Assembly (NCBI GenBank): GCA_951406725.2
Contig: OX597814.1
Location: forward strand, 144,584,001-144,648,000
Reading direction: 5' to 3'
DNA: 64,000 nucleotides
DNA from: Octopus vulgaris
Taxonomy: Eukaryota
The position numbers were made by a program, and so were the translations under genes. Positions within the stretch are counted from its first letter, which is position 1; the number at the start of each line of letters is the position of its first letter. Under the pieces are notes generated by a model that made no database searches, was not told where the DNA came from, and worked only from the letters and a program-made list of their open reading frames with translations. Below are positions 298 to 48,200 of the stretch, piece after piece.

Positions 298-955
298 GCC
301 TATATATATATTACTACGTACAGCTTTCACTCAGAGTAGAGGATGATTTGGCTGCATGCACCATTCTTTTACTTATTATTTTGGGTGCCCATGTAGTTTT
401 TGTTCCAACAGAACAGCTAGGATGTGCAACCTGGATTGGATAAGAGAGATGGGGACAAAGAGAGATGAGCCAAGCATTCAGCTAGTACTTTGGTTAACAA
501 GACCAAAAACCTGAAAATTGAAGTTGACCTCAGCAAGATCTGAACTCAGACTTTAGAAAGCCAAAGCAAATATTAGCACACTAAATTTATCCAATGCTCC
601 AGCAACTCTGCCAACCAGCCATGCCTGTATGTATATGTAAATGTTATATTATAGGTGCACATCATAAAGATGCTGAGAATAAAAAAAAACAAAATAAAAA
701 TTTGGAAAAAATATTTAATTTCATAGAAGTTATTTAAAGGTGTGTTTTGAGTGAACAAATAGAAATTTTAAAGGTTTTACAGAAAAAAAAATTTTTCAAA
801 AAAAAAAAATTCATAAAGGAAAAAAAAACCTGATTTGCCCTTCTGTACTTTTTTTTTAAAATATATATTTTCATTTTTCCAAAATGACAAATAGTATTCT
901 AAAGAAAATCTGCAGGTTATTGTATAAAGCCAACTTAAGATAAATGTATAGAGAT

Positions 956-2851: not shown

Positions 2852-4485
2852 TTAAATCTGTTAAGCTAAAAAAGAGGTGCAAAATAATAATTATTGATTC
2901 ATGATTTAACTGAGAACTGATCAAGCAAGCTAAGATTTCTCTAATTAGAAAAAAAAAAACAAATATGGAACTTTTCACATTCGTCATCTTGTAGTTGTTT
3001 TGTTTATTCTGTAAAAGTTAGTGAAAGTATTGTGTTACAGGAAGCTTTAAAAACATACGAAATAGGTACAATCTTTTTTTATCCCTAATAAGTTTTCTCT
3101 AGATAAGTTCTTTATTCAAAAGATTCATAAGCTTGAGCCAATAATACATAATTTTTGCTAGTGTCCTTGTTCTCAATTGAATTTTCAGATTTTAGTCAAG
3201 ATTTTAATATGATGATGATGATCTTAAATTACTTTGGGGGAACCTTAATAGTTCGTAAATAATTGGGGGAGGTGGGGATAAGTCAATTACATTAACCCCA
3301 CTGTTCGACTAGTGCTTATTTTATCGACCCCAAAAGGATGAAAGGCAAAGTCGACCTCGGCAATATTTGAACTCCAAATGTAGCGATGGGCGAAATACCA
3401 CAAAGCATTTCGTCCAGCGTGCTAACGATTCTGCCAGCTCACTGCCTTGTGCCAATAATACATAATAAAAAGGAAAATATGCCCTAGATTAGAAAAATAA
3501 ATTACAGCTTTATCAAAAAGCAAAAGAAATAGTATTTCAGAATTAAGCCAGAAATATTTTGTGTATAAAACAAACAAAAAAACCTGTTTAAGATCACTCC
3601 TTTTTAACTGTATTTTTCTCACAAGAAACCCCCTTTTTTTTTTATTTAAAAAAATTTTCAAAAATTAAAATAAGAAGATTACTAATGACAAATACAAAGT
3701 TTTATAAATGTATATTATATGTATATAATCCAAGCAAAATAGTTTCTCTTTTTTGTACAAGATGCTTTTGTTTACTAAAATGTCAAATTAACAAGTGAAA
3801 AAACTTATCCAGTAGGTGAGAAAAAAAAACAAAAAAAAAATTCATTTTAACAAGCATATTTAACTGATAAATAATAGTGAAGAGGAATAAGACAGATTCA
3901 ACATCCCTTACATCACCCAATTGCAGAAAACTTCCAAAAATAGTGATAATGATTCCTTTAAAGTAGTCAGTCAAAAAGTGAGAATAGCAAATGCAAAGGA
4001 GAAAGAAAAAAGAAAAGTAAAAAAGAAAAAAAAATAGATATAAGATAAATGTGTATTCATTCGTGCGTATCTGTTTTGTGTTTAAGAGATCATATATGCT
4101 TGTATAAGCGCCAAAACAATGAAAACAGATCACCCTATCATAAGCAAACGATTTCAAGTTAATTCACCATAAGAGGTCTAAGGCTTTTTAATCATTCCCT
4201 GTATTAGCCTAAGATCTTTTGGTCATCTTATGAATAGCCACTCAATTTTGCATAGTTTAACATGGCAATATTCGCACACATGTATGCGAAAGTTCAAACT
4301 TATAATCAACAAATCCGCTGATGCATTCATTACATGTGGAACTTTCAGCAAACTGGTTAATACTTAAAGAACAATTGGCTTTTTTTTCTTTTTTCATCAT
4401 TCTGTTTGCAGGACCTAATTTGATGGATAAATTTATATTTTTTTCTTAATAAGAAAGAATAAAATTTCTTTATGTAAATTAGTCA

Positions 4486-4741
4486 TTAGGATTGCTTTGT
4501 ATGTTTTTGTGCCGTAATCCAGATTTCATCATCTGGTTTAGTAACCAGTCCGTAAACAGGAGTGACAACCTGACCTTTAACAAGACCCAAGCGGAACATT
4601 CTCAAAATCTTTGTGATACAAATGCTGGCACATACATAATTTAGTGCACGCTTTGGATCTCCGTTTTTGCCATAAATATCAAAAGGTTGGAAAACTAAAC
4701 CAGATTTGGCCTTATCCTCAGCAAATCTTTCTGGATCAAAC
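4486..4741 (-). CDS. CYP20A1: CYP20A1 last coding exon (FDPERF...[19 protein letters not shown]...[13 protein letters not shown])
   Basis: TTTCAG acceptor, PERF motif, TAA at 4488-4486. Confidence 0.94.
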
Positions 4742-5266
4742 CTGAAACAAAAATAAAAATTATAAAATCAGAATCCTTATATACTGTATATGTCCACCAT
4801 TCAAACATCATAACAATGTCAATGAAGAGAATATCGTTTGCCATCATTGTTTTAATCTCCACTTTTCTATGCAACCATAGGTGAGATGGAATTTATTGGG
4901 GCAGATTTTCTACAGCTGGATGCCCTTGTTGCCAAATCTCACCTGCTTCCAAGCAAGGTGATATTTCCCAATAGCTAAACACGTTTTTTCACAGAAGACG
5001 GGAAACAAACAACATTGCTTGTATGACAATGATGTTCATTTCAACCATCGTATGATATCTAGACAAGGGTACACACAAACACACACACACACACACATAT
5101 ATATATACATACACACATATACATACATACACACATATACATACATACACATACATATATACATACACATGTATACATATATATATATACATACACATAT
5201 ATACATATACATATATATATAAACATACACATACATATACATACACATACATACATATACACAAAC

Positions 5267-5321
<55 letters not shown>

Positions 5322-8300
5322 TGATGAGCTTCTTTCAGTTTCCATCTACCAAATCCACTCATAAGGTTTTGGTCTGTCTACGTTTATAATAGAAGACACT
5401 GACCCAAAGAACCATGCAGTGGGACTGAACCCAAATTTCCAAGATTAGGAAGCAGGCCTCTTAACCACACAGCCAATGCCAGCACCATCATACATAAATA
5501 AAAACTATCATGATGAGATCTATCACAAAGCTCATCAGTTCAGTGACCATCCAGTCCTGCAGCTTTCCAACCTGAGATCTACAATACTTGTACCGGGGTC
5601 TGTGAACCATGTTCAAAACTTTAAATGGCTGCAGTGTAAAATGCGTGATTATTCATTTATATATTTTATTATTACTGAATCACACATCATTACCACTCAG
5701 TTGCACAGTATTATTCTCTACATCATTTAATGTCTGTTTTCCATGCTAGCATGGTTTTACAGGAGCTGGCAAGGCCAGAGTCTGCACCAGGTTCCATCAT
5801 TTGTTTTGGCTTTGTTTCTACAGGTGGATGCCCTAATGCCAACCACTCTACAGGGTGTACTGGATACTTTTTATGTCACACCATCATACGGCGCTTTTTA
5901 CATGGCATCAGCACCCACACCAATACTTTTTTTTATGTGGCACCTTGGTTTCAGGATATCAATTCTGTTGTGATGGATAGGTTTTGAGTACAGCAATATG
6001 CCACTTATCTTAATCTTCTTACACAATCAGTTACAGATTACTATTATTCAATTACATATACCTTTTTTAACCAGGATCAAACTGGTGGTAAACTTCTTAA
6101 CCATATATCTATGACAGTAACCTTGTTCTATAAGAATTTAACGCCAAGACTTCTATAATGTAAAGGTTTAACCAAGCCTTGTCACACATTTGTATGTTTC
6201 TATGCTAGTATGGTTTTTTATTCTATGAACTTGGATACCATCATTACAAAATGTTGCAGCAACCATCATTACAAAATGTTGCAGTAATTGACTTATTAGA
6301 TACTAATAATGCTAACGGAAAAAAAAGATAATTTAAACATACTGAGTAGGAAGAGGCCAATATTGTTCTTCTTGCATTAGGACACCAATAGCATGAAGGA
6401 TAGGAGTCTGAAGAAAGAAAGAAAATAAATAAATAAAGATTAAGCTATCGGTACTAAAACATTTAATGAAAGCAAAAGAACAATTTAAAGTGATATTCTT
6501 GTGTATGCATTAAAAGACAATTAAAACATGGAGCTATGAAAAGATAACAGTTTATAAAATAGCTACACATTTATTTCAACAAGGTAAAAGAGTTTGCCAA
6601 AAATAAATATTCATCATAATCATCATTTAACATTCATTTTCCATACTGTTGTGGGTTGGATGGTTTGATGTTTGTGGGTTACATGGTTTACAGTCAAAAG
6701 ACTGCCCCAAGCTCTGTTTTGGGCTTCGGTATGGGTTCTACAGCTGGATGCCCTTCCTAATGCCAACCACTTTACAAAATGTACTGGGTGATTTTTACAT
6801 GGCACCAGCAGCAGTGAGGTCACCAAGTAACTTGCAGGACAAGACCCCTCAACTAAAGTGGGAGTAGTATTGAGGGGCAGAAAAAGTTGTCTAGAAGTAG
6901 AGGAGAAACACGGCTATCTCAGGTGGAGAAAAAGTGGAAAGAGAGAAGATCAGAGAGAGAGAGATGGTGAGGATGTGATGGGATAGGGGTGCATACACCC
7001 AAGTTACAGGGAAGTGTATCAAGTGGACAGAGCAAGTAGGTGGCAAAGTTGACGAGATTGCAAAAAAAGAGTGAGAGATGGAAGGAGGAAGGGATGTAGT
7101 GAATGGGCATCCCCCACCAAAAAAAAAAACCATGAGCAGCACTTAACTAAACCCTTATAGTTGCTCCAAATGTTAGGCCTTACTATCAATGAGGATCTCT
7201 CCCAGAGAAGTATATCCTTAGCCAAGATAGCATCCCAAAGACTGGTTCTTTTTTTTGCCATCAACCCCTACACATTACTGCCTTGAGCCAAAGGACTTGT
7301 AGGGTTAGTTACAAGGCTTCTATGGTGTGTAAATGACTGGAATTACAACCTTTCCTTTCAACAGGACACCAGTTTGTCACAAGGTGACTCATTTACAGTG
7401 GAGCAGACTGGAGCAACATGAAATGAAGTGTTTTGCTTAAGAATGCCAACATACTGCCCAGCCTGAGAAAGAAACCACAATCTTGCAATCAGGAATGCAA
7501 CACCCTAACCACTAGGCAAGAAAATGTTTCAGCCCAAATCAGTTGCTAACACTTTACAAGGCTAGAGTGAAGCCCATAATAGAGTATTATACCCACATTT
7601 GCTGTTATGAACACCGACATCCTGGACTGCTTCTAGAAAGCCCACTCAACTGATTGGCATTAAATCACTAAGAAACACAGGCATGCTGTTTCTTCTTTCT
7701 GTCTTTTCTATTGTTACTATAATAGATACTATCTAGCTCCATGCCAACAAAAATGATGGCTAATTATAGTATTTTATATGTAAGGTACATAATAATAACA
7801 CATACAAACATTCACATATTTTCTTAGTACACGCATACACATACAGAATTGAAATGCCGTTTGATTTTTTTTTCACCCCTTCCTTTGTTGTTTGTATGTT
7901 GTGACAGAGAAAGACGAGTATTATTATAGTAGATTGCTCCTTAGAACTGACTGGTCTCATTCCTTCTCCAGGGGAGCACCACCAATCCTCTTGGCTCTCC
8001 ACAACTCATTATCCCATCCCCAAACTTAAATAACCATATGCTCAGTCCTCTCTCCCTAGAATACCAGCTCCCTCTGGAATCTACTTCCTCATATCATTCC
8101 TGCTGGTTGATGACCTGAAGCAATTTTTTAAAAATATTAATGGCATCAAGATCACCAGTCCCAGGACCTACAAAGGCCATTTCCTTTATATTCAACCAGT
8201 AAAATAAAAAGAAAAATCACATTACTCCTAAAACCCTGCAAAAATAAACAACCCCTTCCCCTAGGTATTTATCAGTGCAATTGTAAATGAGCCCATCAAT

Positions 8301-11300
8301 GCAATTGCAGCTATTTTTTTTTATACAGATGTTCATACAGATCCATTGAAAGAGATAAGAACACAGACCTTCAGTTACAAATATCTATTACCATCATCAA
8401 AGCCTGAGAACAGGATTTTAAAATTCTAACTTAAAAATTGAATGTTAGTTGAAATAAATAATAAAATTTTATGAAGTAAAAAAAAAATTAAATTAAAGAT
8501 AAATTTGCAAAATAAATATATTACATTTTTGGGAATTTTATGTCCTTCAAGTTCTCCATCAAAACTCTGGGTGTAGGCAGACCATTGTATTAACACAGCA
8601 CATCGATGAGTTTCATCCAACACTTGCTTCAGATATCTAAGTAAAGAAGAAACAGGTGAAAACAGAGAATTTATTCCATTCTTTTGCAGACATATTTTTA
8701 ACAAGAATATAATATAACAGCCTTTGTGTTTTAATTTACAAAATGGATAGGATGGGTCATCACAATCTGTATCGTCTTGCACACACAACAACACAGAAGG
8801 CCATCTGATTTGGGTGAAGTGTAACATGTAGGTGCAAGCAATAGGTACACTGTAACTTTTAGGTACATGGTCTAGTGGTTGCACTTATGATTGAAGATTG
8901 CAGTTTCAATTCTTAGACCAGGTGATATATTGTACTTTTGAGCAAAACACTTCATTCCACATTGCTCCAATCTACTCAAGCTGTAAATGAGTAACTTTGT
9001 AACAAACTGGCATCCTGTTCAAGTAGATTGTTGTGATATCAGTCATTTGTATGCCATAGAAACTGTGTGACCAGCCTTATGAGTCCTAGAACTCGAGACA
9101 CTAATGTCCAAGGGTTGATGTTGACAAAGAAACTGCCATACCTGTGCTACAAATTTAATGGATCAATTAGAATAACTTCTCTGACACTGCCAATCAACAA
9201 TCTACTGCCTTCTTTTCGAAATTCTCAATGAAGAATCTCTATGCAGCATAAAGTACAGAACTAGAACATTCTCATCAGCATTTTAATGTTCACTTTTCCA
9301 TGCTTGCATGAGTCAGATGGTATTTGTTGAGGCAGATTTTCTACAGCTGGACACACTTCCTTTCATTAGCCTTCATCTGTTTCCATGCAAAGTCAATATT
9401 TCCCCATGACAGACATGTCTCAATACATCATCATCATCATTTAACGTCCGCTTTCCATGATGGCATGGGTTGGACGTTTTGAGGACTGGCAAACCAGAAG
9501 GTTGCACCAGGCTCCAACCTAATCTAGCAAAGTTTCTACAGCTGGATGCCCTTCCTAATGCCAACCACCTTGAGTGTAGTGGGTGTTTTTTACATGCTGA
9601 AATGGTGTTTTTCTACAAGCCACTGACACAGGAGCCAGTCAGGTGGCACTGGCAACAACAACATTCATATGACGCAAAAACAAAGCTATGTAGGCCTATA
9701 GGCTGACTTATGACCAAATCGACTTACAACCAGTCAGTCAGAACCAACAGTGGTCGTAAGTCAACGACGACCTGTATATATAATGGGTTTCTTTCAGTTC
9801 CTCTACCAAATCAACATACAAGGTTTTAATCAATTTGGTGTTATAGAAGACACTTGCCCAAGATGCCAAGCAAGTGGAATCAGATATATAAAGTTTGAGA
9901 GGGAATATAGATTTAAAAAAAAAGCATTCCTTACTTCATTTTTTTAAGATTCTCTGGAGTAATTTCATCATCTTTCAGAGTTTGTACTTCTTTTGTAAGT
10001 TTGGTTTGTACATCACTATGAGTAGCAAGGAAATATAACAACCAAGTCAACACTGAAACAAAAGTTTGAGAAGCATTAGAGAAAAAGAAAATGTTTAGAG
10101 ACAAAGAAGGTAAGTTAAAGGGTGACAAAACTGGGGTTTAAGAATAAGCTTGTTTGAACCAGACTGCTCTCAAATGATGAGTAAAAAGAAGATGGGGGAA
10201 GAAACACTGAATAATGTAGTCCTAGACATACAATGTCTAAAAAAAAAAAAACCAAGATGTCATGTTTGGAACACCCTAAACTGCAGTCCTGCAGAGTTTT
10301 AGTAGAACAGATCAACCCCAGTACTTATTTTTAAACCTGGTACTTATTCTATCAATGCCTTTAGCAAAAATGCTAAGTTACAGGGATGTAAACAAACCAA
10401 CCAGTTAACCAGCAGTGGGGTGGGACAAACACAGACACAAAGAGACACACACACACACACACACATGATAGACTAACCATACAGCCATACCTCTGATAAC
10501 ATTACTTTGCTTTTATTTTTTGGTTAGTTTAGTCAAAGAAGGAGCGCACATTGGTTAAGAAAACAAAAACAATAATGGAACCAGTTTGAACATCATCATC
10601 ATCATCGTGTAACGTCTGTTTTCTATGCTGGCATTGGATGGTTTCACTGAGGTCTGGAAAGTCAGTGGCTGCACCAGGTTCCAATCTGATCTGGCAATGT
10701 TTCTACAGCTGGATGCCCTTCCTAATGCCAACCACTCTGAGAGTGTGGTGGGTGTTTTTTAAGTGCCACCAGCACAGGAGCCAGTCAGGCAGGCCTGGCA
10801 TCGATCACATTCAAATAGTGCTTTTACGTGCCACTGACATGGGCAGGGCCATCACTAAGCCCCTGCAACCCCTGCGGTCATAGGAGGCCTCTGCAGTTGA
10901 AGGGCCCCATGTTGAGATCAAAGTATGTAGATGAGTTATCTATTTACTTTGGTTAAGATGTTGGACAAGAATTAAATTATCTATATTAACTGAACATTTC
11001 AAGAAATAAAATGGTAATACATTGTACCTGCAAAAGTTCTTGTAAAAATATTACATTGTACCACGAACATGTACCAGACTTTGTGGATTGTCAATGATAT
11101 CTATTGAACATGAACTTAGCTCTCAGCTTGATTATTCTGAACTGATCGATGATTTCGCGAAGCCAGAAGTGTGCCATGCTTGTCTTTGAAAGTTGCTTGG
11201 ATTATAAGAGTGCTCTTTTATTCATATCTGGAAGTTTTACTTACTGAAATTTGTAATAGACCTAAATAAATTTAACTTGTACTTTTAAAGATGTTCTTTA

Positions 11301-14300
11301 GGATAATGTGAAATATTGAACTTCAGATAGAATAAAGTAAAATATAGCTATGAATAAAAGATGTGTAGATTATGAATTTTGATTTAAGGGATGTTAATAA
11401 ATGTTACCTTTACTGATAGTACTAATTGACAGGAAACTTGTTATAAGTTATTTGCAGAGCTATACTTAAGTTAGAGTAATCAGGTAATTCATGGGAAAAA
11501 ATATGTCCAAATAGAAGAGATCACAATGGAACAAGTTGTAGAGGATAATGTAGTTTAATCAAGTCCCTGGCAAGATATTGCACTAAAAGCCCAAAAAGAA
11601 ACCATGATGTTGCACTGTAAGCTTACCAAACCTACAGAGAGAGGCTGCACCACAAATTCGTGGAGGACTGCTACACTACAAAGCCATGCAGAACGGCTAC
11701 AAATACAGGTCCATGGAGAGATGCTACCACTACAGACCCATGGAGAGCTGCTGCCACTACAGATCCATGGAGAGCTGCTACCACTACAGATCCATGCAGA
11801 GCTGCCACCACTACAGATTCATGGAGAGATGCTACCATTACAGATCCATGGAGAGCTGTTACCACAATAGATCCATGGAGAACTGCTACCACTACAAATT
11901 CATGGAGAGATGCTACCACTACAAATTCATGGAGAGATGCTACCACTACATATCCATGGAGAGCTGCTACAACTACAGATCCATGGAGAGATGCTACAAC
12001 TACAGATCCATGGAGAGCTGCTACCACTACAGATCCATGGAGAGCTGCTATCACTACAGATCCATGGAGAGCTGCTATCACTACAGATCCATGGAAAGCT
12101 GCTACCACTACAGATCCATGGAGAACTGCTACCACTACAGATCCATGGAGATCTGCTACCACTACAGATCCATGGAGAGCTGCTACCACTACAGATGCAT
12201 GGAGAGCTGCTACTACTACAGATCCATGAAGAGATGCTACCACTTCAGATCCATGGAGAGCTGCAACCACTACAGATCCATTGATAGCTGATACCACTAC
12301 AGATTCATGGAGAGTTGCTACCACTAGAGATTCATGGAGAGATGCTACCACAACAGATCCATGGAGAGCTACAACCACTACAGATCCATGGAGAGCTGCT
12401 ACTGCTAGAAATCCATGGTCGGATGCTACGCAACAAACTTATAGAGAGACTAAAGCAGATCTCTCAAACCCATTGTAAGAGTACACAACCAATCACAACA
12501 AGCAATGCCAGTATCAATATAGTGGTAGGGTGTAGCACAAGGAGAGCAATAAAATTTTGAGAACAGAAATAAAACAGCGAATGGTAAAAGATGTTAAATG
12601 AGACATTACAGCAGCCAAGAGTATGAAAATCAAACATCATTGTCATGAAGAGGTCCATAACTATTTCACTATCAGCTGCATCAGTCTTCAACAAGAAATC
12701 AATTAGCAAGGAATTCTCTGGAGAAACAGTTGGCTGGTCACGGCGCTTTGTAACAGCATCTTGCAGATATTTCTCAAGAAAATTCTGAGCTGCAAACAAA
12801 AACAAAGTAAAATATATATAAGTAAATAAATACATAAATTGGTTAAAATGAAAATTATGCTTTATTTAAAGAAAAAAATCAGATTTTAAACAAAATCTTT
12901 CTCGTGATAAGCTTTTTTTTTAGAAAGAAAACTAAATGTTCAGAGGTGAGGTGGCTGTGTTCCTTTTGAGTGTTGGGCCTCACAGAGGCAAAATGGCTGA
13001 GTTCCTTTCGAGTGGACTTCACAGAGGTAACGTGGCTGAGATCATTTTAAGTGTTGGACCTCACAGAGGTGAAGTAGCTGAGATCCTTTCGAGCAGGCCT
13101 CACAGAGGTGAGGTGGCTGAGTTCCTTTTGAGTGTTGGGCCTCATGGAGGAAAAGTGGCTGATTACCTTTCAAGTGTTGGGCCTCACAGAGGCAATGACC
13201 AAGACCTTTGGCATTATGTTGTGCTTGCAAAGAGGACCCATCAAGCCGTGCAAAATCGCAGCTGTGGCAGATACCAGTGTCACGCAAATGGAATCTTTTC
13301 CGGTGGTACACAAAAGCACTCATGACACTTTTAGATTGGTTGGCATTAGGAAGGGCATCAAGTTGTAGAATACCATGCCAAATCAGACTGGAACCTGGCA
13401 CAGCCTTCCAGTCTGTCAGTCCAGTCAAACCGTCCAACCCATGCCAGCATGGACAACAGATGTTAAATGATGAGGATGATCATGATCCTCATACCTAAAT
13501 ATAACAATAACAAAATGGAATGGATGAAGACAAGTTGAGGCAAGTGAAATCGAAATCAAACTCAGTGACTGGCATCCATTGCTAGTGGAGCGCTAAGAGT
13601 ACCATACAAGTGTGATCGTCGCCAGAGCAACAAGCTGGCTTTCATGCCGATGGCAAGTTAAAAACACCATTCGAGCGTGATCGTTACCTGCGTCACCTTA
13701 CTAGCCTTACTAGCACTTGTGCTGGTGGCACGTGAAAAAAACATTCGAGTGAGGTCGTTGCCTGTGCCGGTGGCATGTAAAAGCACCTACTACACTCTCA
13801 GAGTGGTTGGCGTTAGGAAAGGCATCCAGCTGTAGAAACTCGGCCAGATCAGATTGGAGTCTGGTTCGCCAGACCTCAGTCAAATCATCCAACCCATGCC
13901 AGCATGGAAAGCGGACGTTAAACGATGATGATGATGATTCACAATTCAGGGAAAAAAGGCAGTCTACCAGCCCGTTACCTTTTGCAACAGATGCTAAAAG
14001 TACTAAAGAAAAGGAAAGCAGCCATGACTAAAGGGTCAGTGCAGTAGGGAGTACAACATCCTCATCAGTTAACATCCACCTTTTTGTGTTTGCATAGCCA
14101 GATGCATTTCCTATTGCCAACCATCACCTGTTTCCAAGCAGGGGAGCATTTATCATAGCCAGATGTGTTTTTCACAGGAGTCTGGAAGCAAACAGCGTCA
14201 AGTGTATGATGGTGATGCTCATTTGCAACTGTTATGTGATGTCAAGACAGGAGTACACGCATATATGAACACACACACATTTTAACATATGTGAACAAAT

Positions 14301-17300
14301 TCAATGGGCTTCTCTCAGTCTCCATCTACCAAATCCTTTCACAAGGTTTCGGCTGATCTAAGGCTATAATAAAAGACACTTGTCAAAGATGTCATGCAGT
14401 AGGACTGAACCCAAAACCATATGGTTAGGAAACAAACCTCTTACCCACACAGCCACATGTGATGTACCTAATTCTACTCAACCCACAACCACATGATTCT
14501 GAATCGAATTTCTTCACTAGACAGCCACACCCATATTCAAACAAAAACAAAGCAAAAAACATGGTAAATGTGGAAGATATTTTCATACCTTCTTTAAAAG
14601 CTTGTATCCGATGAGACTCTGGTTCAGCCAGATCCTGCAGGCATCTCTGAATTTCATACCAACACTAGACAAATAGAAAGAAATATAAAACAAATTAAAC
14701 ACAAGTGTCTGCTATATACACAGTTCAAGATATTGGATGTCTGTGAACAAAGGATTCATAAAATAAGTAAGTACCTGCAACTGATTTACCACCCCACTCA
14801 AATTGCTGGCCTTGTGATAAAATTTGAAACCAATATATAGACAACAATACAATACTGATACAGGGCAGGTAAGATGCACTAAGCACCAGGCAGGTAAGGA
14901 CATACAAACATAAATGGCAGGTAAGCATTCTTGAATGCACAGAGCAGATATGTGCATGCACCGTACAGCTAGATTATGAGGCATTATCGCTTACCGTATC
15001 AAAATTCCTCCGCAATGTGAAAATCCCCATGTTGTCTTTGAAGGTGTCACCAATTGTGCTAAGGACTTGATATTTAATTGCTAAAGCCATCATGTGCTCC
15101 TCTACAGGAATATGTTGATCGCTCATCACTGACCATTTTGTCAGTAATTCATCAGTAATCTAAGAAAAGAAAAAAGAAACAGTTTGGATTGGATAATTCA
15201 ACATTCATTTACTTTCATCAAGAAAGATTGTACAACTCACAGAAGTAACAAGAAAAGGAAATAAAAGTTCACTGATGAATAAGATAACTGCTTGAAAAAT
15301 AAGATAATGGGCTTTATTTTACATGTGAAGAAGACCAATTTTTATAAGTTTTCTCTGGCACCACAACACTACAATCTTTATCTTCTTCCTAGCTTTTCCT
15401 ACCCACTCTTATATAATGCGGGGTAGCCATGTATCTCTTCTATAGCAAGACACCTGTGCTTGTTCCTCTACCATACTTAACCCTCTAGCATTTAAACCAG
15501 CCATATCCGGCCAAAAGTATTCTTCCTGTTTTATGTTCAAACTGGCCAGATCTGGTCTCTTACACCAACCCTATGATATCGTTTTAAAAATTAACAGCTA
15601 CCTCATCAAAATCTCATAGCTACAAGATAATGCATGATTAGTTCAAAACAATGATGATGGAAAAGCATTAATTTTGGTAGAATAATGCGAACACTAAAGG
15701 GTTAAACCTCTCAATGCTTGGCAAAAAGCCACTTTCCACTCTCAAATACTACCCTCCGCTAGCCGAAGGGGCTTTTTCCAGATCTTTTCCCATCTTGCAA
15801 GTTACTTAGCAACCATGTTGGTGCCAGTGGCATGAAAAAAAGCACCCAGCAAACACAATAAAGTTGTTGGTAGTAGGAAGAGCACCAGCCATAGAAACCA
15901 TGCCAAATCTAACATTGGAACTTAACGAATTCTGTCAAACCATCCAACCCATGACAACACAGAAAACAGATGTTAAACAATGATAATGGTGGTGATGAGA
16001 AGAACAGTTAAGTGAACTTTTAATTCTAGTATCAAAATGTAATTTACTTCTTGGACTCAAGAAAAATAAATGGTAAAGTTAGCTCTAGTAAGATTTGAAA
16101 CTGTAACAGAAAAGGATCTAATTAAATGCATTTTGTCAAACACTCCATGTTAGCCAGCCTGGTTATTTTGTATTGTAAATGGTGAAGTCGACAACAGAAA
16201 TTACAGGTTTCCAATGAGTTAATTACTGGTTTATTGCATTTCTGACAAGAGCAACAAGGGAGTGCCTGTATCTTGGTGTAGAACACACATCACAAGAACT
16301 TCATTCAAAAAGTACTGGTTGACCAGTTTTCTCGAAGTTTATGCTCTTTGTTAATAGAGGTACATTATAGTGGAAAACTGCCAGTGTCATTCCTCTGTTC
16401 AAAAAGGGTGACCGCACATCACCTGTCAACTATCGCCCAGTCAGTCTCACTAGCTGTATTGCAAAACTGATGGAATCGTGTGTCAGAGAAACACTCTGGA
16501 ACTTCTGGAGCTCTCACAGTCTCATCCGACCCTCACAATATGGATTTGTCCCTAACTCCAGCTGCAGTGACCAGCTTGTCGAGTTCCTTGAGGACATTAC
16601 TCAGATCACTGACAGTGGCTCATGGGTGGATGTTGTCTACCTTGACTTTGCTAAGGCTTTCAACTCTGTGCCACACAAAAGGCTTATGGTGAAACTCTCT
16701 GCAATGGGTGTGGGGGATGACCTTTTTAACTGGTTGAAATCCTTCATCCTCAGCCGAAAGGAGGTAGTCACAGTTCTAGGACAGCACTCTACACCATATG
16801 AGATGTCATCGGGTGTACCACAGGGATCTGTCCTTGGTCCCCTCCTGTTTGTGGCATACATTAATGACATAGATGCCAATTTAAAGAATGCCACAGTATT
16901 GAAATATGCAGACGACATCAAGCTGTACCTTGAAATCAAGAGGACTGATCCTGATGTCTACAACTCTTTCCTGCAATCAGACCTAGACACAATGCAGCAA
17001 TGGATCACAGACTGGCAACTGAAACTGGCTGTGGACAAGTGTACCATCATGCATTTTGGGAGAAAAAACCCTGCGTCCACATACTCCCTCCACAACACTG
17101 ATATCAAGAAATCCTCTTGCGAGCGTGACCTAGGCATCACTGTCAGCAGTGATTTGCGTTGGACAAAGCATATCTCTAAAATTGTCAAGAAGGCCGAGGG
17201 TGTCTTGGCATCAATCAGCAAGACTTTTGTTAGCCGCTCTCCAGCCATCTATTTAAAACTGTATACAGCTATGGTACGACCACACTTGGAATTCGCATCA

Positions 17301-20300: not shown

Positions 20301-23300
20301 CAGAGCAACAGATGAAATGCCTTATAGAATTTTTTCCAGCTTCTTGCTTTCTGAGTCCAAACCCTGCTAAGTTCAACTTTACTTTTTATTCTTCTATGGT
20401 CAATATATAAAGTGCTGGTCTAAGGCAGTGCACTGGCAGAAATGTTAGAACAATAGACAAGATGCTAAGCTATGGAGACATAAACACACCAGCATCAGTT
20501 GTCAAGTGATAATGAACAAATTTATTAGAGAAAAGGTTATAGAAAGTTTTCTGATAAATGGAGATAAACAGGAGCAAAATTGTGATCTATTTTATAATGA
20601 AAGTAATTCAAGTAAGAATTGGTTGACTCAGTATGAAGTGGGTATAAAAATGCATGACTGAGAGATTCAGGTGATGAAAATTCATTTCAAATGACTTATT
20701 AAGAACATGAAATACCTTTGCTATAATGGTGGAATGTGTTTTGATGGAATTTTCATTCAAAGACTTTGTAAATTTAATTCTACGTTGCTTTCCTGATTCA
20801 TCACCATTAAAAAGGCTTTCCGATCCCAAAAGTGGTTCAAACAGCAAGTAGACTTCACCTAAAATGTTTGATAAAAATTATAATAGAAATACTGAACAAA
20901 CAACAATAACACAAACTACCACAAGCAGAACTAGAAAATAAGTGAAATTTAGAAAAATAAAATGGTTGGTAAAAATTTAATAATGACTACTTCAGAATTT
21001 TAAATTCAAACTGATATATGTATATATATATTTGACTATTACATTAAAATTCCAAGTTCAAAGTCTACTGTGAACAGGTATCATGGAAACTCTGAGGTTT
21101 AGAAAAGGATTGTTTTTTCCTTTTTATATGATATTTAGAATTTTCTTCATCAATAAGGGTTAAACAATTCTTACTTGATCGGTCAACAATTTTCTTTTGG
21201 TTCTTGAAAAGTTCTGGAGATGCCAGACTGATAATTTGGTAATTTGACATCCAAAAAGAAGTGATGGAACCATACTGCTTATGTATATTGATTAGAAATT
21301 CATGAAGACTTCCAGAGCGAATAATGTCAGCCAAATTTCCATCTCTGTAAAATAAGAGGGTTTAGTCATTTACATTGTTAAAACATCATTAATTTTTTTG
21401 AAGTTCAAATCAGAAGAGAAAAATAGAAAAAGACATGACATATTATGGATATTATGTCGGGAAAAAGGAGACGACTACATCATTTTTCTTCACATCAATA
21501 AAACCTAAAAACTAAATTCTGTATGAATTAAAATCTGGCATACTAGATTTTTATTCAGCCAGGTGGCTATTCACAATATTAGCATTTTATTCATCTTTCT
21601 CTATATCAAAGACAAAGAGTTCTCATTCAAGCATGTTAGGGAATAGAGATATAAAGTTGTTGGATTATGATCATCAAAAGAAAAAATGTCTACTATCATT
21701 TTATCAATTATATTTTGTTCTTTTAGTAGTTACAGTTTCTGTTTATTAAAAGATATGTCCATAAGAGATGTTACTGCAATAACTGACCTCTCAACAGTGT
21801 ATATACCTTAGGTATGATACATAGATAGTTATTTTACATTCTGTATATCACTTATTTCACATGCCTCATATAAATTTCATTTGGAAAGACAATCCCTTTT
21901 CTACTAAATGCAAGTAGCACCTCTTTAAGTGGTTTAACTAACACAATCAAGCCACTGAAGTATCATCTTTATAAACAATGAAACAACTTACAAATAAGTA
22001 GCAGAATTCCACACAAATCTCTACACCTTTCTTTTCAAGGTCATATTTCAATTTAGATACACCATGTGTTACAAATCATTTCATAAATAAACAAGTATTT
22101 GGTAAAATATCCTTTTTACCTCTGCCTTAGTGAAGGCACAGGTGTTGTTTTCAGTCATGTTTGTTTGAGAGCAGTCAGGTTCATTTTTAGTATTCTCATT
22201 TGTGAGAGCAGTTGAGTTTATTTCAGATATTCTCATTTTAAAAATCATCTCTGGCTAAATCGTTGAGAGGACATTAGTGTTGCCTTGGCAGAGGTTTGTG
22301 CTCTTGTTATTATTAAACTAGTGTTTGGAACATGAAGTAAGAGTGAACTGCTTAAGCAAGATACTTACAAAAGAGCTAACACAAAGAATGTTATAATTCT
22401 GAGCCTTATGATACTATTTGTTCTTTTACGTTTTTCCATATTTCCATGGATTAGACCAGAGGTTCTCAACCATTTTTTAAATATAGACTCTTTTGATTAC
22501 TAGTTTATTCAGGTGGACCCCCACAGCCATTCTATATTAAAAAAGACTAGTTTTATAGAAACTTCTTTCAAAATTCCTATTTTGTTTTTCACACATTAAC
22601 TTATCTAAGTTGAACTACGTAAAACGTTTGAGAAAAAAAACCTAGCTATTTCTTGCAAATCATACCAATATATGCATCTAAAACAACATCTTTTCAGAGG
22701 CCCTTAAAATTATATTGTGGATTCCCAATTTACTATTTTGTTGTGTGGACCCCCAAAAATCTTACATGGACCTTCAGGGGCCATGTGGACCCCAGTTGAG
22801 AACCAGTGGGTTAAACAGATACTTATTGAAGTATCTTATTTTTGCCTTTAGATACAGGTCTAAAGTAAATTCTCACAGTACAGTAATTCCCCATTCCCAC
22901 TGAACAGACAGGAATATTCTTGTATATTTTTTTCATAAAACAACAAAAATGAACATACTGTTTGGAAGATGGTTCAAGTCCCAGGATTGTAGTTGGTCGT
23001 CTTGAACCCTAAAAAGAGAATTTTAAAAAATATTTAAATATAAAGATATAAAACAAAAGAAAAAAACATTTCCTTGCTGATGCCAGATGTGCATCATAAC
23101 TTTCCATCCTTGATGTTCAATCCCAGGTCAGCACTGACCGAACAAGCCTATGAACAAAGACATTGCAGCTGAGAAGGCACTGGTTATATTTTAGGAGCAG
23201 TCATGGCTGTGTAGTTAAGAAGTTTGCTTGCAACCATGTGGTTTCGGGTTCAGTCCCACTGAGTGGAATCTTGGACAAGTGTCTTCTACTATAATCATGG

Positions 23301-31700: not shown

Positions 31701-32157
31701 GGGACGTTGGGAAGACATGTAACTTGGATGAAAGTATTAGTAAACTATGAAGTATTTATTATTGTTATTATTATTATAGTCATTCTGTATTGGTAATTGG
31801 AAAGCGTTGCGTGAAAGGAGTACGTATTTAATTCTCAGCTTACAAAAAAAAAAAAAAAATCTCACGAAGTCCGTCAAGAGAACACATACGAAACAAGACA
31901 ATTTAATGTGTTGGGGTTTGCGTCGTTGTATCAAATATTTTCTCACTTAGTCAACAAAAACAAATGGAAAGCCAAACAATAAATGACAATTCTTTACTAC
32001 TTACATGATAATTAATTTTCACAGTGAGAGTAGACAAAATTTAATAACGGAAGCGAGAGGAATTGCATAAAATGATAATACTTACTGGATAAAGGTAAAT
32101 TATTGAAATTATTAAAGTCACAACGAAAAAGACAGCGAATATAACGAAGTCGAGCAT
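4486..32157 (-). CDS. CYP20A1: Cytochrome P450 family 20 (CYP20A1-like), complete 11-exon gene, 468 aa; join of 32086-32157, 22959-23008, 21175-21344, 20716-20858, 14995-15159, 14589-14664, 12610-12789, 9935-10052, 8525-8636, 6343-6407, 4486-4741
   Basis: Hand-spliced ORF of 1407 nt, all GT-AG with phases consistent. The N-terminus [41 protein letters not shown], ExxR (ETHR), FDPERF and the C-terminal [14 protein letters not shown] match vertebrate CYP20A1 as recalled (MLDFAIFAV..., [31 protein letters not shown]). Confidence 0.95.
5070..5320. repeat. Compound (CA)n/(TA)n/(TACA)n microsatellite
   Basis: Seen directly. Confidence 0.9.
6343..6407 (-). CDS. CYP20A1: CYP20A1 exon 10 ([21 protein letters not shown])
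   Basis: TTTCTTCAG acceptor, GTATGT donor, 65 nt. Confidence 0.92.
7150..7760 (+). mobile_element. Decayed L2/Crack-type LINE 3' fragment interrupted by a family C SINE (~7270-7516)
   Basis: Translates [10 protein letters not shown]...IASQRL, then [20 protein letters not shown]. Confidence 0.55.
8525..8636 (-). CDS. CYP20A1: CYP20A1 exon 9 ([12 protein letters not shown]-helix ... GHKIPKN)
   Basis: TTAG acceptor, GTAATA donor, 112 nt; ExxR motif. Confidence 0.94.
9935..10052 (-). CDS. CYP20A1: CYP20A1 exon 8 ([22 protein letters not shown]...)
   Basis: TTTCAG acceptor, GTAAGG donor, 118 nt; typical I/J helix sequence. Confidence 0.94.
10844..11620 (+). mobile_element. Non-autonomous hAT (Tip100-like) fossil retaining the transposase C-terminus
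   Basis: Starts CAGGGCCATC; 11076-11170 translates [29 protein letters not shown], like the end of the hAT dimerisation domain. Confidence 0.65.
11640..12430. repeat. Minisatellite, 27-bp unit CCATGGAGAGCTGCTACCACTACAGAT, about 26 good plus a few degenerate copies, in CYP20A1 intron 7
   Basis: Direct tandem periodicity; degenerate copies at both edges. Confidence 0.95.
12610..12789 (-). CDS. CYP20A1: CYP20A1 exon 7 (G/H helices and start of I-helix, ...LIDFLL...[10 protein letters not shown])
   Basis: TTTGCAG acceptor, GTAATG donor, 180 nt. Confidence 0.9.
12940..13200 (+). repeat. ~42-bp tandem repeat (about 6 copies) running into an RTE 3' end that extends to ~13485
   Basis: Unit CACAGAGGTGAGGTGGCTGAGTTCCTTTTGAGTGTTGGGCCT; the last copy reads through LGLTEAMT into the RTE 3' UTR and (GAT)n tail. 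Confidence 0.75.
13550..13938 (+). mobile_element. RTE LINE 3' UTR fragment with (GAT)n tail; similar copies near 6625, 9425, 10590, 23725, 27015, 29415, 60650 in both orientations
   Basis: Matches the 3' UTR of the RTE element at 47385-47780. Confidence 0.75.
14589..14664 (-). CDS. CYP20A1: CYP20A1 exon 6 ([25 protein letters not shown])
   Basis: CTAG acceptor, GTATG donor, 76 nt. Confidence 0.88.
14995..15159 (-). CDS. CYP20A1: CYP20A1 exon 5 ([29 protein letters not shown]...)
   Basis: Polypyrimidine tract plus TAG acceptor, GTAAGC donor, 165 nt. Confidence 0.93.
15481..15701. mobile_element. piggyBac-like MITE monomer
   Basis: TTAA TSD at 15477-15480 and 15702-15705; CCCTCTAG / CTAAAGGG termini. 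Confidence 0.7.
16368..17792 (+). mobile_element. 5'-truncated CR1-group LINE with uninterrupted RT ORF (16470-17717) and (ATT)n tail, in CYP20A1 intron 4, antisense
   Basis: [34 protein letters not shown] and TRGH motifs; (ATT)n at ~17766-17792. Confidence 0.92.
18235..18665 (-). mobile_element. SINE family A, near full length; a partial copy in the opposite orientation follows (18666-18915)
   Basis: Homologous to 37230-37670; internal (CA)/(TA) microsatellite. Confidence 0.8.
20716..20858 (-). CDS. CYP20A1: CYP20A1 exon 4 ([29 protein letters not shown]...)
   Basis: TTTTAG acceptor, GTATTT donor, 143 nt. Confidence 0.92.
21175..21344 (-). CDS. CYP20A1: CYP20A1 exon 3 ([31 protein letters not shown]...)
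   Basis: TTACAG acceptor, GTAAG donor, 170 nt; strong CYP20 similarity. Confidence 0.95.
22113..22305. mobile_element. Helentron-associated (HINE/DINE-like) non-autonomous element
   Basis: TTTTACCTCTGCCTTAGTGAAGGCACAGGT 5' hairpin, GTTT microsatellite, 3' CCTTGGCAGAGGT subterminal inverted repeat. Confidence 0.5.
22457..22808. mobile_element. hAT/Charlie-like MITE
   Basis: TIR CAGAGGTTCTCAAC / GTTGAGAACCAGTG; degenerate 8-bp TSD (GATTAGAC/GGTTAAAC); homologous to 61272-61599. Confidence 0.75.
22959..23008 (-). CDS. CYP20A1: CYP20A1 exon 2 ([16 protein letters not shown])
   Basis: TTTTTAG acceptor, GTATGT donor, 50 nt; phases 0 and 2 fit the neighbours. Confidence 0.88.
23195..23590 (+). 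mobile_element. SINE family A, diverged
   Basis: Head, body and tail homology to the other copies. Confidence 0.75.
25536..25865 (+). mobile_element. tRNA-derived SINE family C (CORE-like), nested in a family A copy (~25430-26140, - strand)
   Basis: TGGCTCAGTGGTTAGAGC A-box, GAGTTCGATTCC B-box, TTGAGCAAGACACT core. Confidence 0.75.
27680..27930. mobile_element. Probable Helentron/DINE-like remnant ending at a (TA)n tract
   Basis: T-rich start, AAATTTGAG...AATTTGTGGACGTGCAT, (CA)n, then CTTTTATATATA end. Confidence 0.35.
27982..28745. mobile_element. Penelope-like element terminal-repeat remnants between two (TA)n tracts
   Basis: Hammerhead-like CTGATGA...GAAA core, 52-bp inverted repeat, flanking TA microsatellites. 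Confidence 0.5.
28198..28279 (+). ncRNA. Degenerate minimal type I hammerhead ribozyme (Penelope-type), probably inactive
   Basis: Stem I CATC/GATG; CTGATGA 28202-28208; stem II GGGGTGTGTCA/TGGCACGTCTC extended by GATAATATGA/TCATATTATT; GAAA 28263-28266; stem III and cleavage triplet damaged. Confidence 0.5.
32086..32157 (-). CDS. CYP20A1: CYP20A1 exon 1 (signal anchor, [24 protein letters not shown])
   Basis: ATG at 32157-32155; 72 nt; donor GTAAGT. Confidence 0.93.
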
Positions 32158-45292: not shown

Positions 45293-48200
45293 CATAATTT
45301 AACGTCCGTTTTCCATGCAGGCATGGGTTGGACGGTTTGAGGATGCACCAGGCTCCAATCTGATCTGGTAATGTTTCTACAGCTGGATGCTCTTCCAAAC
45401 GCCAACCACTCCGAATGTGTAGTAGGTGCTTTTTACGTGCTATCGACACAGGAGCCAGTCGTGGCTGGGTGGAGGGTGGTGGCATCGACCACATTCAGAT
45501 AGGGCTTTTATGTGCCACCGGTTTGGGGAGCCAGTCAGTCAGCACTGGCAATGACCCATGCATGAATGGTGCTTATTGCGTGTCACAAGTACAGGAGGCA
45601 GCACTGGCATTGGCCACTACTACAATTTCCATTTCATTGTGGTTTGTTTTGATTTTACATGACTCAGTAGGTCTCCTTGAGCACAGCATGTCGCCCGACG
45701 ATTCAGAAGTACTTTTTAAATGAGCTGGTTATGTGACACTAGTGTAGGCTACGGCTGTGATCTCACTTTACTTGCCGGGTCTTCTCAGTCACAGCATATC
45801 TCCAGAGGTCTCGGTCTTTCGTCATTTCCTCTATGAGGCCCATCGTTCGAAGGTCATGCTTCACCACCTTATCCCATGTCTTCCTGGGTCTCCCTCTTCC
45901 ATGGGTTCCTTCCTCTGTTAGGGAGCGACACTTCACACACCTCATCCATATGCAGCACATGATCATAACAGTGCAGTCGTCTCTCTTGCACACCACATCT
46001 AATGCTTCTTTTTTTCTTTATTGCCCACAAGGGGTTAAACATAGAGGGGACAAACAAGGATAGACAAAGGGATTTAGTCAATTACATTGACTCCCAGTGC
46101 GTAACTGGTACTTAATTTATCGACCCCGAAAGGATGAAAGGCAAAGTCGACCTCAGCGGAATTTGAACTCAGAACGTAACTGCAGACGAAATACTGCTAA
46201 GCATTTTGCCCGGCGTGCTAAAGTTTCTGCCAGCTCAACGCTACATCTGGTGCTTCTTATATCCAACATTTCTCTCCGGGTGCTTACACTCTGTCGTGTG
46301 TGCACACTGACATTACACATACAGCAGATCATACTAGCTTCATTTCTTTCAAGGCTACGCATGTCTTCAGCTGTCATGGCCCTTGTTTCACTGCTCTGAA
46401 GCATGGCAGTTTGCACATGTGCATCATACAATCTACCTTTTACTCTGAGTCAAAAGCCCTTTGTCACCAGTAGAGGTAGGAGCTTTCTGAACTTTGCCCA
46501 GGCTATTCTTATTCTAGAGGCAACGCACTCCAAGCATCCACCCCGATGACAGATTTGGTCACCTAGGTAGCAGAAGCTATCAACTATTTCTAGTTTTTTC
46601 ACCTGGCATGTGATGGAATCAGTTTTCTGAGCATCTTAGATATTTATTACCCTGCCTCTGTGCATCTGCCGCACACAAAAGCTATCTTCCCGGTTAACCT
46701 TCCTTTGATGTTACTGCACCTCTTACGCGTCCATAGCTTACAGTATGTACATCTTACGGAGTTTTTACCTACACCTTTTTCTACAGATCGAACAGGGCCA
46801 TCTACCTGAAGGGGTTTGTGATGTGTTCGCCTTTCTACTTAATAGTACGTTGGTTTTTGCAACATTGCCTCTAAGGCCTTTCGATTCTAAACCTTGCTTC
46901 CACACCTGAAATTTCTTCTAGTTTTGGTAGTGATTCCACTATGACAGCAAGGTCATCAGCATAGAGGAGCTCCCAGGGGCAACCTGTCTTGAATTCCTCT
47001 GTTATTGTCTGGAGGATTATGATGAGGGCTGATCCTTAGTGAACTCTGACTTCTACCCAGAATTCTTCACTATACTCAGTGCCGACCCTTACTTACTAAT
47101 GGCATCCCTGTGCAGCTCTTATTAAGCACTCGCCAATCCCCAATTTCTGCATCGCCCACCAGATAAGGGATCAGGGAACCCTGTCAAGGGCTTTCTCCAA
47201 ATCAACAAAAGCCAAGAACAGGGGTTTATCTTTAACTAGGTGTTTCTCCTGCAGTTGCAGTACCAGGAATATAGCATTAGTAGGGCTTCTAACTGGCACA
47301 AAACCAAACTGCAGACCTTTTCCCTAGTTGTGCTATGACCCTCTCCGTGAGCTTCATCACATATACATATACATACATACATACATCATCATCGTTTAAC
47401 GTCTGTTTTCCATGCTAGCATGGGTTGGACGGTTCGGCCAGGGTCTGGGAAGCCAGGAGGCTGCACCAGGCTCTAGTCTGATCTGGCAGTGTTTCTACAG
47501 CTGGATGCCCTTCCTAATTCCAACCACTCCGTGAGTGTAGTGGGTGCTTTTTACGTGCCACCGGCACGGAGGCCAGTCAGGGCGGCACTGGCAATGGCCA
47601 CAATTGGATGGTTCTCTTATGTGCCACCAGCGCTGGTATCACAACTACAATTTCTATTGATTTTGATTGATTTCGATTTCACTTGCCTCAACAGGTCTTC
47701 ACAAGTAGAGTTTTGTGTCCCAAGAAGGAAAGGTATGCATAAGTGGACTGGCTACATCCCAGGTAGAGGCCACGGGTTACGGTCTCACTTGTCCTGCCGG
47801 GTCTTCTCATGCACAGCATACTTCCAAAGGTCTTGATCACTAGTCATTGCCTCGGTGATACCTAATGTTCGAAGGTTGTGCTTCACCACCTTGTCCCAGG
47901 TTTTCCTGGGTCTACCTCTTCCACAGGTTCCCTCAACCACTAGGGTCTTGCACTTTTTCACACAACTATCTTCATCCATTCTCGCCACATGACCATACCA
48001 GCGCAAATGTCTCTGTTGCATACCACAACTGATGCTTCTTAGGTTCAACTTTTCTCTCAAGTTACTTAGTCTGTCGAGTATGAACACTGACATTACACAT
48101 CCATTGGAGCATACTGGCTTCATTTCTTGCGAGCTTGCGCATATCCTCAGCAGTCACGGTCCATGTAGCATGGCTGTTTGTACACATGTGTCATACAGTC

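Follow-up and report, generated by a model that had tools for sequence, protein, structure and literature searches.

Can a cytochrome P450 that has lost the cysteine ligand of its heme still be a maintained protein, and what would it then do? The question arises at a CYP20A1 gene on the minus strand of the window, by which we mean the whole 64,000-nt stretch of Octopus vulgaris DNA analysed here. The gene's terminal exon (4741-4486) reads FDPERF followed by 25 residues, not spelled out here, which include Asp412 (GAT at 4659-4657). A sequence-only reading had placed Asp412 at the position of the heme-thiolate Cys in an otherwise intact CYP20A1, and had offered two accounts of it: a maintained pseudo-enzyme, or a heme protein with a different axial ligand. 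We find that the loss of the heme ligand in the sole detected copy of this orphan P450 is real, old and clade-wide in the coleoid sequences found.

A homologue search with the last exon returned P0001, an Octopus vulgaris protein named 'cytochrome P450 20A1-like' (468 aa, 100% identity). The locus comprises 11 exons running from 32157 to 4486 on the minus strand, with a span of 27.7 kb and GT-AG borders at 10/10 introns, and the joined coding sequence of 1407 nt translates exactly to P0001 and ends in a single terminal stop. The eleven open exons, the canonical splice sites and the ExxR and PERF motifs described from the sequence alone are all present in this model, whose features are as follows.

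32086 to 32157, minus strand: exon 1, with the start codon and the N-terminal membrane anchor (aa 1-24); identical to P0001 and followed by a GT donor, helix 2-22 in the structural model
22959 to 23008, minus strand: exon 2, with AG and GT splice sites
21175 to 21344, minus strand: exon 3, containing Arg96 (P0001 mapping)
20716 to 20858, minus strand: exon 4, with C-helix Arg123/Arg124 kept (P0001 mapping and alignment)
14995 to 15159, minus strand: exon 5 (P0001 mapping)
14589 to 14664, minus strand: exon 6, F-G region, with aa 209-219 identical in 4/4 octopod-decapodiform comparisons
12610 to 12789, minus strand: exon 7, I helix, with Phe278-Asp279 at 12634-12629 (alignment)
9935 to 10052, minus strand: exon 8 (P0001 mapping, Pfam p450 match)
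8525 to 8636, minus strand: exon 9, K-helix ExxR intact, with Tyr346 at 8575-8573 (alignment)
6343 to 6407, minus strand: exon 10, its junction with exon 11 present in contigs of 3/4 runs
4486 to 4741, minus strand: coding part of exon 11, with PERF, the degenerate Cys loop, the beta4 strands and the stop codon TAA
4651 to 4683, minus strand: degenerate heme-signature loop, aa 404-414, with Asp405 and Asp412 (GAT 4659-4657)
649 to 672, minus strand: alternative terminal exon of the annotated isoform P0069 (426 aa), reached from an internal donor after Tyr419 at 4636

The transcript evidence for the last exon comes from contigs of four among 24 listed public runs (four studies, three organism codes), compared with region 4250-4830. 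The Asp412 codon is covered by contigs in all four runs with no other letter, and in three of them the contig diverges from the genomic sequence at acceptor 4741, where 30/30 letters of exon 10 follow. Because this exon-exon junction is present, we treat the contigs, from runs that carry no RNA label on record, as transcripts; they are blind to expression level and to rare edits. Transcript contigs also extend beyond the stop, from 4485 to below 4250 on the minus strand, for at least about 1 kb, and at 2686 nt contig X1 is about as long as expected for a full-length mRNA whose 5' UTR measures about 210 nt.

The idea that an alternative last exon might supply the Cys, which the sequence-only reading had entertained, finds nothing behind it: P0069 also has Asp412, its alternative exon contributes no Cys, and a six-frame motif scan of the 64-kb window found no Cys-bearing heme motif. 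The P0069 junction (4636 to 672-649) was not seen in the contigs of the four public runs, and the isoform would lack the greater part of the L helix and of the beta4 strands. A sequencing or assembly error, judged improbable from the outset, is now ruled out by agreement among four octopod species (the same Asp in O. sinensis, O. bimaculoides and Argonauta) and all four runs.

By fold and by profile score, the protein descends from the P450 superfamily. Its Pfam p450 (PF00067) score is 130.5 bits against a cut-off of 22.8, and an AlphaFold2 model built from a 54-sequence alignment has a full P450 fold with an N-terminal helix at 2-22 (mean pLDDT 87.5, pTM 0.88). Foldseek and VIA match the model to P450s at a TM of about 0.8, the best being CYP120A1 (Z 40.7, rmsd 2.6 over 418 residues). 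Orthology with CYP20, judged against a threshold of about 40% identity to CYP20A1 sequences, is indicated by identities above that value and by nesting within the CYP20 tree. Like the CYP20s of Solemya (P0010), oyster and abalone, the octopus protein has the usual length, membrane anchor, ExxR and PERF, and it is 44-46% identical to its nearest non-coleoid mollusc relatives. In the excerpts of PMC8669017, vertebrate CYP20A1 is single copy, as the octopus gene appears to be.

The heme site tells a different story from the scaffold. The canonical heme-thiolate signature FxxGxRxCxG is absent, with Asp412 in octopus and Asp, Arg or His among coleoids; the I-helix groove (A/G)Gx(E/D)T is replaced by FDFHT in all coleoids; of the basic residues associated with the heme propionates, Arg346 is lost in 17/17 coleoid rows and the C-helix Arg is kept; and the coleoid sequences share no single alternative axial ligand of the sort that characterises non-canonical hemoprotein CYPs. 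The protein is a CYP20 by descent but, on these residues, fails the heme-thiolate test of a canonical P450. In the AlphaFold2 model, pLDDT falls below 50 at 403-406 and 408-410 and lies at 68-79 at 91-120, compared with 89-95 in those regions (89-93 at the Cys loop) of a Cys-bearing Solemya control modelled with the same 54 sequences. The low values at the loop may reflect a disordered Cys pocket, or may only mean that the query fits poorly into an alignment of mostly Cys-bearing sequences.

We then ask how widely the change is distributed. The alignment holds 144 of 151 CYP20-related proteins, 17 coleoid and 127 non-coleoid rows from sponges to vertebrates; left out were P0003, P0005 and P0008 (mis-called ORFs with intronic N-termini), the truncated isoforms P0077 and P0081, P0069, and the 654-aa P0108. 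The 17 coleoid rows amount to four 90% clusters and one fragment, many of them near-identical, and the named species are three Octopus, Argonauta and Sepia (Acanthosepion) pharaonis, with the other rows grouping with Sepia. At the axial column, aligned without gaps through the motif, Cys occupies 127/127 non-coleoid CYP20s and 0/17 coleoid rows, which carry Asp (4/17, Octopus and Argonauta) or Arg (13/17, Sepia-type). The assignment of Asp412 to the Cys position is upheld by this column, and the feature, first described at the level of an octopus and indeed present in Octopus, proves to be coleoid-wide in the sequences found. The neighbouring residues Asn410 (-2) and Lys414 (+2) match the first description, yet taken alone they say little, given that the 127 Cys-bearing CYP20s themselves vary there (Gln at -2 in 20; Glu at +2 in 22 and Ala in 17). 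Fragment P0003, from an ENA contig, resembles the Sepia-type proteins and has an axial His, ungapped through the motif; Cys, Arg, His and Asp can be walked in that order by single-base steps, a possible route for the loss.

The age of the loss follows from the tree only as a bracket, between other molluscs and crown coleoids. The coleoids form a clade (SH-aLRT 100) amid mollusc and other lophotrochozoan CYP20s, with a stem branch of 0.44-0.51; from root to tip the crown measures about 0.26-0.35, much as in bivalves and gastropods. Relative to P0001, O. sinensis has 2 differences and O. bimaculoides 6, Argonauta hians is 88% identical, and the Sepia-type proteins are 61-62% identical. The octopodiform-decapodiform split is placed at about 240-245 Ma in the calibration used in the excerpted PMC13076209. 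The homologue and profile searches returned no sequence named Nautilus or Vampyroteuthis and none that branches on the coleoid stem in the trees, and no orthologous coleoid CYP20 DNA was found among metagenome contigs. A single loss of the axial Cys on the coleoid stem is the simplest reading of the tree, with two early losses as the alternative.

Sites elsewhere in the protein separate what was dismantled from what was held. With a cut-off of 85% conservation outside coleoids, every coleoid row preserves the outside residue at 56 sites and every one departs from it at 7, namely Pro342, Arg346, Val365, Leu369, Gly405, Cys412 and position 464, the last of which falls at the ragged C-terminus. 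Gly405, which opens the Cys pocket, is present in 127/127 non-coleoids and is Asp or Ala in coleoids. Arg346, at the beta1-4 position where P450s use an arginine to bind a heme propionate, is present in 120/127 non-coleoids and is Tyr or Thr in 17/17 coleoid rows. In the I helix, GGFHT has become FDFHT (Phe278-Asp279-Phe280-His281-Thr282) in 17/17 coleoid rows, with Asp at 279 in all of them and Gly in 103/127 non-coleoids. Aligned with CYP3A4, the Phe278-Asp279 pair falls on the Ala-Gly of FAGYETT, a stretch that lies over the heme. Bulk at 278 alone does not exclude heme, because ticks carry Lys at 278 and keep the Cys. On the other side of the ledger, E333, R336, P387, R389 and F390 of ExxR and PERF are kept in all or nearly all coleoid sequences, and some heme-side residues persist as a counterweight, namely C-helix Arg123/Arg124, Arg96, His281, Thr282 and, at -2, an Arg kept in decapodiforms where octopods have Asn.

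The same division appears along the chain. Octopod-decapodiform identity is 0.61 overall, versus 0.56 for bivalve-gastropod pairs, and the most relaxed 11-residue segments relative to other molluscs are 405-415 (0.09 vs 0.85) and 345-355 (0.41 vs 0.89), which are the two heme-binding segments. P0001 and P0076 share 1/11 residues at 405-415 (binomial p 5e-4). Across the 98 sites at least 80% conserved outside coleoids, change in some or all coleoids affects 9/10 heme-neighbouring sites and 16/88 elsewhere (Fisher p 1e-5, a descriptive value, as the motif set was chosen after the alignment was seen). Within lineages, the loop is conserved at the protein average, with 9/11 residues shared between Octopus and Argonauta and 9/11 between two decapodiform clusters, and it is therefore not drifting freely now. 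The best-kept segments are 209-219 (1.0 vs 0.39), 437-447 (1.0 vs 0.57), 145-155, 191-201, 160-170 and 38-48. They cover the membrane-proximal start together with the F-G region and the beta4 hairpin; for the latter two, conservation is taken as raw identity, uncorrected for rate variation, and is suggestive only.

No second gene that might serve as a backup was detected in the octopus genome. The full-length Solemya CYP20 and its C-terminal 89 residues were compared with the 2.8-Gb own genome, with 91/91 and 35/35 candidates scored, and the only strong last-exon match is this locus (66.6 bits; next 30.8). A second or Cys-bearing CYP20 was not detected in the 2.8-Gb assembly, in which a gap might conceal one; the Cys-retaining paralogue suggested for checking in the sequence-only reading did not appear. 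The remaining matches are ordinary P450s, with a normal Cys motif in four of the loci retrieved. The top match after the CYP20 locus, L001 (G000:C7:3392910-3393659), is an intronless 537-aa open frame that was rejected as a paralogue, since its Cys motif is normal and its identity to CYP20s reaches only about 25-33%.

These observations bear on several explanations. Retention of heme through a non-Cys ligand (Asp412 or a nearby Tyr, Cys or His), in a non-canonical hemoprotein such as a gas or redox sensor, a heme buffer or a peroxide-using catalyst, is an unlikely one. It can draw on Asp412 being common to all four octopod sequences, on the retained Arg96, Arg123/124, His281 and Thr282, and on bacterial precedents: the excerpts of Nguy et al. 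(PMC11703216) describe 20 families, A-T, of non-canonical CYPs, all 880 of them bacterial, each with a particular axial residue or none, including Glu, Arg, Ser and Sec, and with ligation shown for Ser and Sec. The bacterial axial residue is typical of its family, however, whereas the coleoids have Asp, Arg or His within one orthologous group and have also lost the propionate Arg. The presence of three unrelated axial residues argues against a replacement iron ligand, as do the loss of the propionate Arg and of the pocket Gly405 and the lack of conservation of Tyr407 and Cys421, the two other ligands named in the sequence-only reading. Both of these were rejected, being Ala and Tyr, respectively, in Sepia-type proteins; no Cys other than Cys337 of the K helix is invariant among coleoids, and Phe278 stands where CYP3A4 has a small Ala before Gly. 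Of the two accounts first offered, the one with a different axial ligand is therefore not supported. We regard as quite unlikely a heme-free enzyme, in which the empty P450 pocket would have acquired cofactor-independent chemistry (e.g. lipid isomerisation or hydrolysis) through Asp279 with His281/Thr282. Phe278-Thr282 is indeed invariant in 17/17 coleoid rows where 103/127 others have Gly279, the substrate-channel regions are well conserved, and one proposal for CYP20A1 is that its substrates bring the oxygen with them (PMC8669017); but an invariant Asp279 is equally explicable as a structural or ligand-binding residue, and His281 and Thr282 are ancestral, not new.

It is highly improbable that the gene is dying or dead, as a young pseudogene or redundant duplicate, or that its Cys is restored by RNA editing or an alternative exon. 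The long coleoid stem branch would suit decay, as would the viability of zebrafish cyp20a1 knockouts, which show behavioural changes (PMC8669017, in excerpt). Against decay, the frame is open in five named species with 61-62% identity across about 240 Myr, and against redundancy, no paralogue was found in the own genome. Coleoids recode RNA heavily, which would favour restoration of the Cys, but A-to-I editing of GAT gives Gly and not Cys, and the contigs, though they drop rare variants, show no other letter. Maintenance is instead supported by the open frame, the GT-AG introns, the spliced contigs, the resemblance to Argonauta (88% identical) and to the Sepia-type proteins (61-62%), and the ordinary crown branch lengths.

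Consequently, we prefer the account in which octopus CYP20A1 is a pseudoenzyme that lacks heme, is anchored in the ER and has been retained for no less than about 240 Myr, probably serving as a ligand binder or scaffold; we think it likely, on the combined sequence comparisons. It develops the pseudo-enzyme account of the sequence-only reading, which gains from the intact spliced frame, from the failure to detect a Cys-bearing paralogue and from a loss common to octopods and decapodiforms. The steps would be these. The Cys would have been lost on the coleoid stem (once) or twice early, after which the Cys loop and the beta1-4 strand would have diverged between octopods and decapodiforms, with the new I-helix pair Phe278/Asp279 probably intruding into the usual heme space. 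Selection would have kept in place the core with ExxR and PERF, along with the membrane anchor, the F-G region and the beta4 hairpin, parts that border the substrate channel of P450s and are turned towards the membrane. Because the anchor, the core and the substrate-channel regions are retained, we infer that the protein's non-oxygenase job would be to bind a lipid-like ligand or a partner protein at the ER membrane, its predicted location.

Cys-less P450s are already a known kind, and the cephalopod CYP20 case did not turn up in the literature searched. Insect CYP408 proteins are animal P450s without the conserved Cys, in a different P450 clan; coleoids lost theirs separately, in CYP20. The closest working model is provided by PDGAF/EryCII-type proteins, which in the excerpts of PMC11703216 are heme-less, non-catalytic chaperones with a P450 fold. 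Like them, the octopus protein retains the fold without the axial Cys. Unlike them, it does not descend from the bacterial PDGAF family but nests among animal CYP20s; they are bacterial and soluble and have a glycosyltransferase partner, whereas the octopus protein arose independently, from an animal CYP20, and is anchored in the membrane. By this analogy the octopus protein may work most like PDGAF without being one. The main-text excerpts of PMC11703216 contain no mention of aspartate or of eukaryote cases. We found no report of Cys loss in cephalopod CYP20 in the literature searched, which covered few subscription papers and supplements; P450 nomenclature curators may already have noticed it.

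Within CYP20 itself, unusual heme sites are not confined to coleoids. The human CYP20A1, described as the last human orphan P450, showed no oxidation of steroids or amines and is reported to be weakly active on luminogenic probes and aniline (PMC8669017). Published CYP20 oddities are a degenerate I helix, atypical outside coleoids too, and a variant heme loop with the Cys kept (PMC8110760, PMC4229089, PMC5381652, PMC6880348); loss of the Cys is not among them. In our alignment, vertebrate CYP20A1 rows (e.g. P0056, P0128 and P0130) keep the Cys, and the heme site itself is eroded, since -2 is mostly Gln, +2 mostly Glu and the I helix hydrophobic.

A profile search added 140 further representatives, with Cys at the axial column in 119, the column uncovered in 14, the Cys absent in 6 and displaced in 1. 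Of these seven, three resemble fragments or mis-assemblies. Three others, P0163, P0167 and P0212, have the full length of CYP20-like P450-family proteins and no axial Cys; in P0218 a Cys lies about two residues further on, which makes it ambiguous. In the tree, P0163 falls near a cnidarian sequence, P0167 and P0218 fall among arthropods, and P0212, confirmed as CYP20 by an Atlas look-up, falls in a clade with a named copepod CYP20A1. These placements apart from coleoids would make four axial changes in all, counted from proteins (P0163, P0167, P0212 and P0218) that are known from one contig each and might be duplicates alongside a normal copy. Repeated independent loss of the axial Cys within CYP20 is, on these sequences, a lead only. 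If it is real, one possible though doubtful generalisation is that the conserved animal job of CYP20A1 is largely non-catalytic, the orphan, human protein included, acting mainly as an ER lipid-binding protein or scaffold on a P450 fold; it would follow from coleoids having gone at least about 240 Myr with no heme ligand and from up to three other lineages being apparently Cys-less.

The coleoid clade amounts to a natural knock-in experiment, in which the only CYP20 copy is intact and spliced while its heme site is dismantled, and it separates the scaffold role of CYP20 from catalysis. An old, clade-wide animal case joins the short list of P450 pseudoenzymes, and the database label 'P450 monooxygenase' on these cephalopod proteins is probably wrong.

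The rest of the window holds a few minor features. Within CYP20A1 intron 7 lies a 27-bp minisatellite of 28 copies (11661-12418), several frames of which are open, and a weak Pfam match at the same position is probably a Cys-repeat artefact. Upstream of CYP20A1 are broken retroelement-like frames on the minus strand (about 46000-50200) and a reverse-transcriptase fragment on the plus strand (54611-55567, Pfam RVT_1). An exon of the gene for CDC37, the Hsp90 co-chaperone, lies at 59638-59874 on the plus strand (Pfam CDC37_N, E 1.5e-8).
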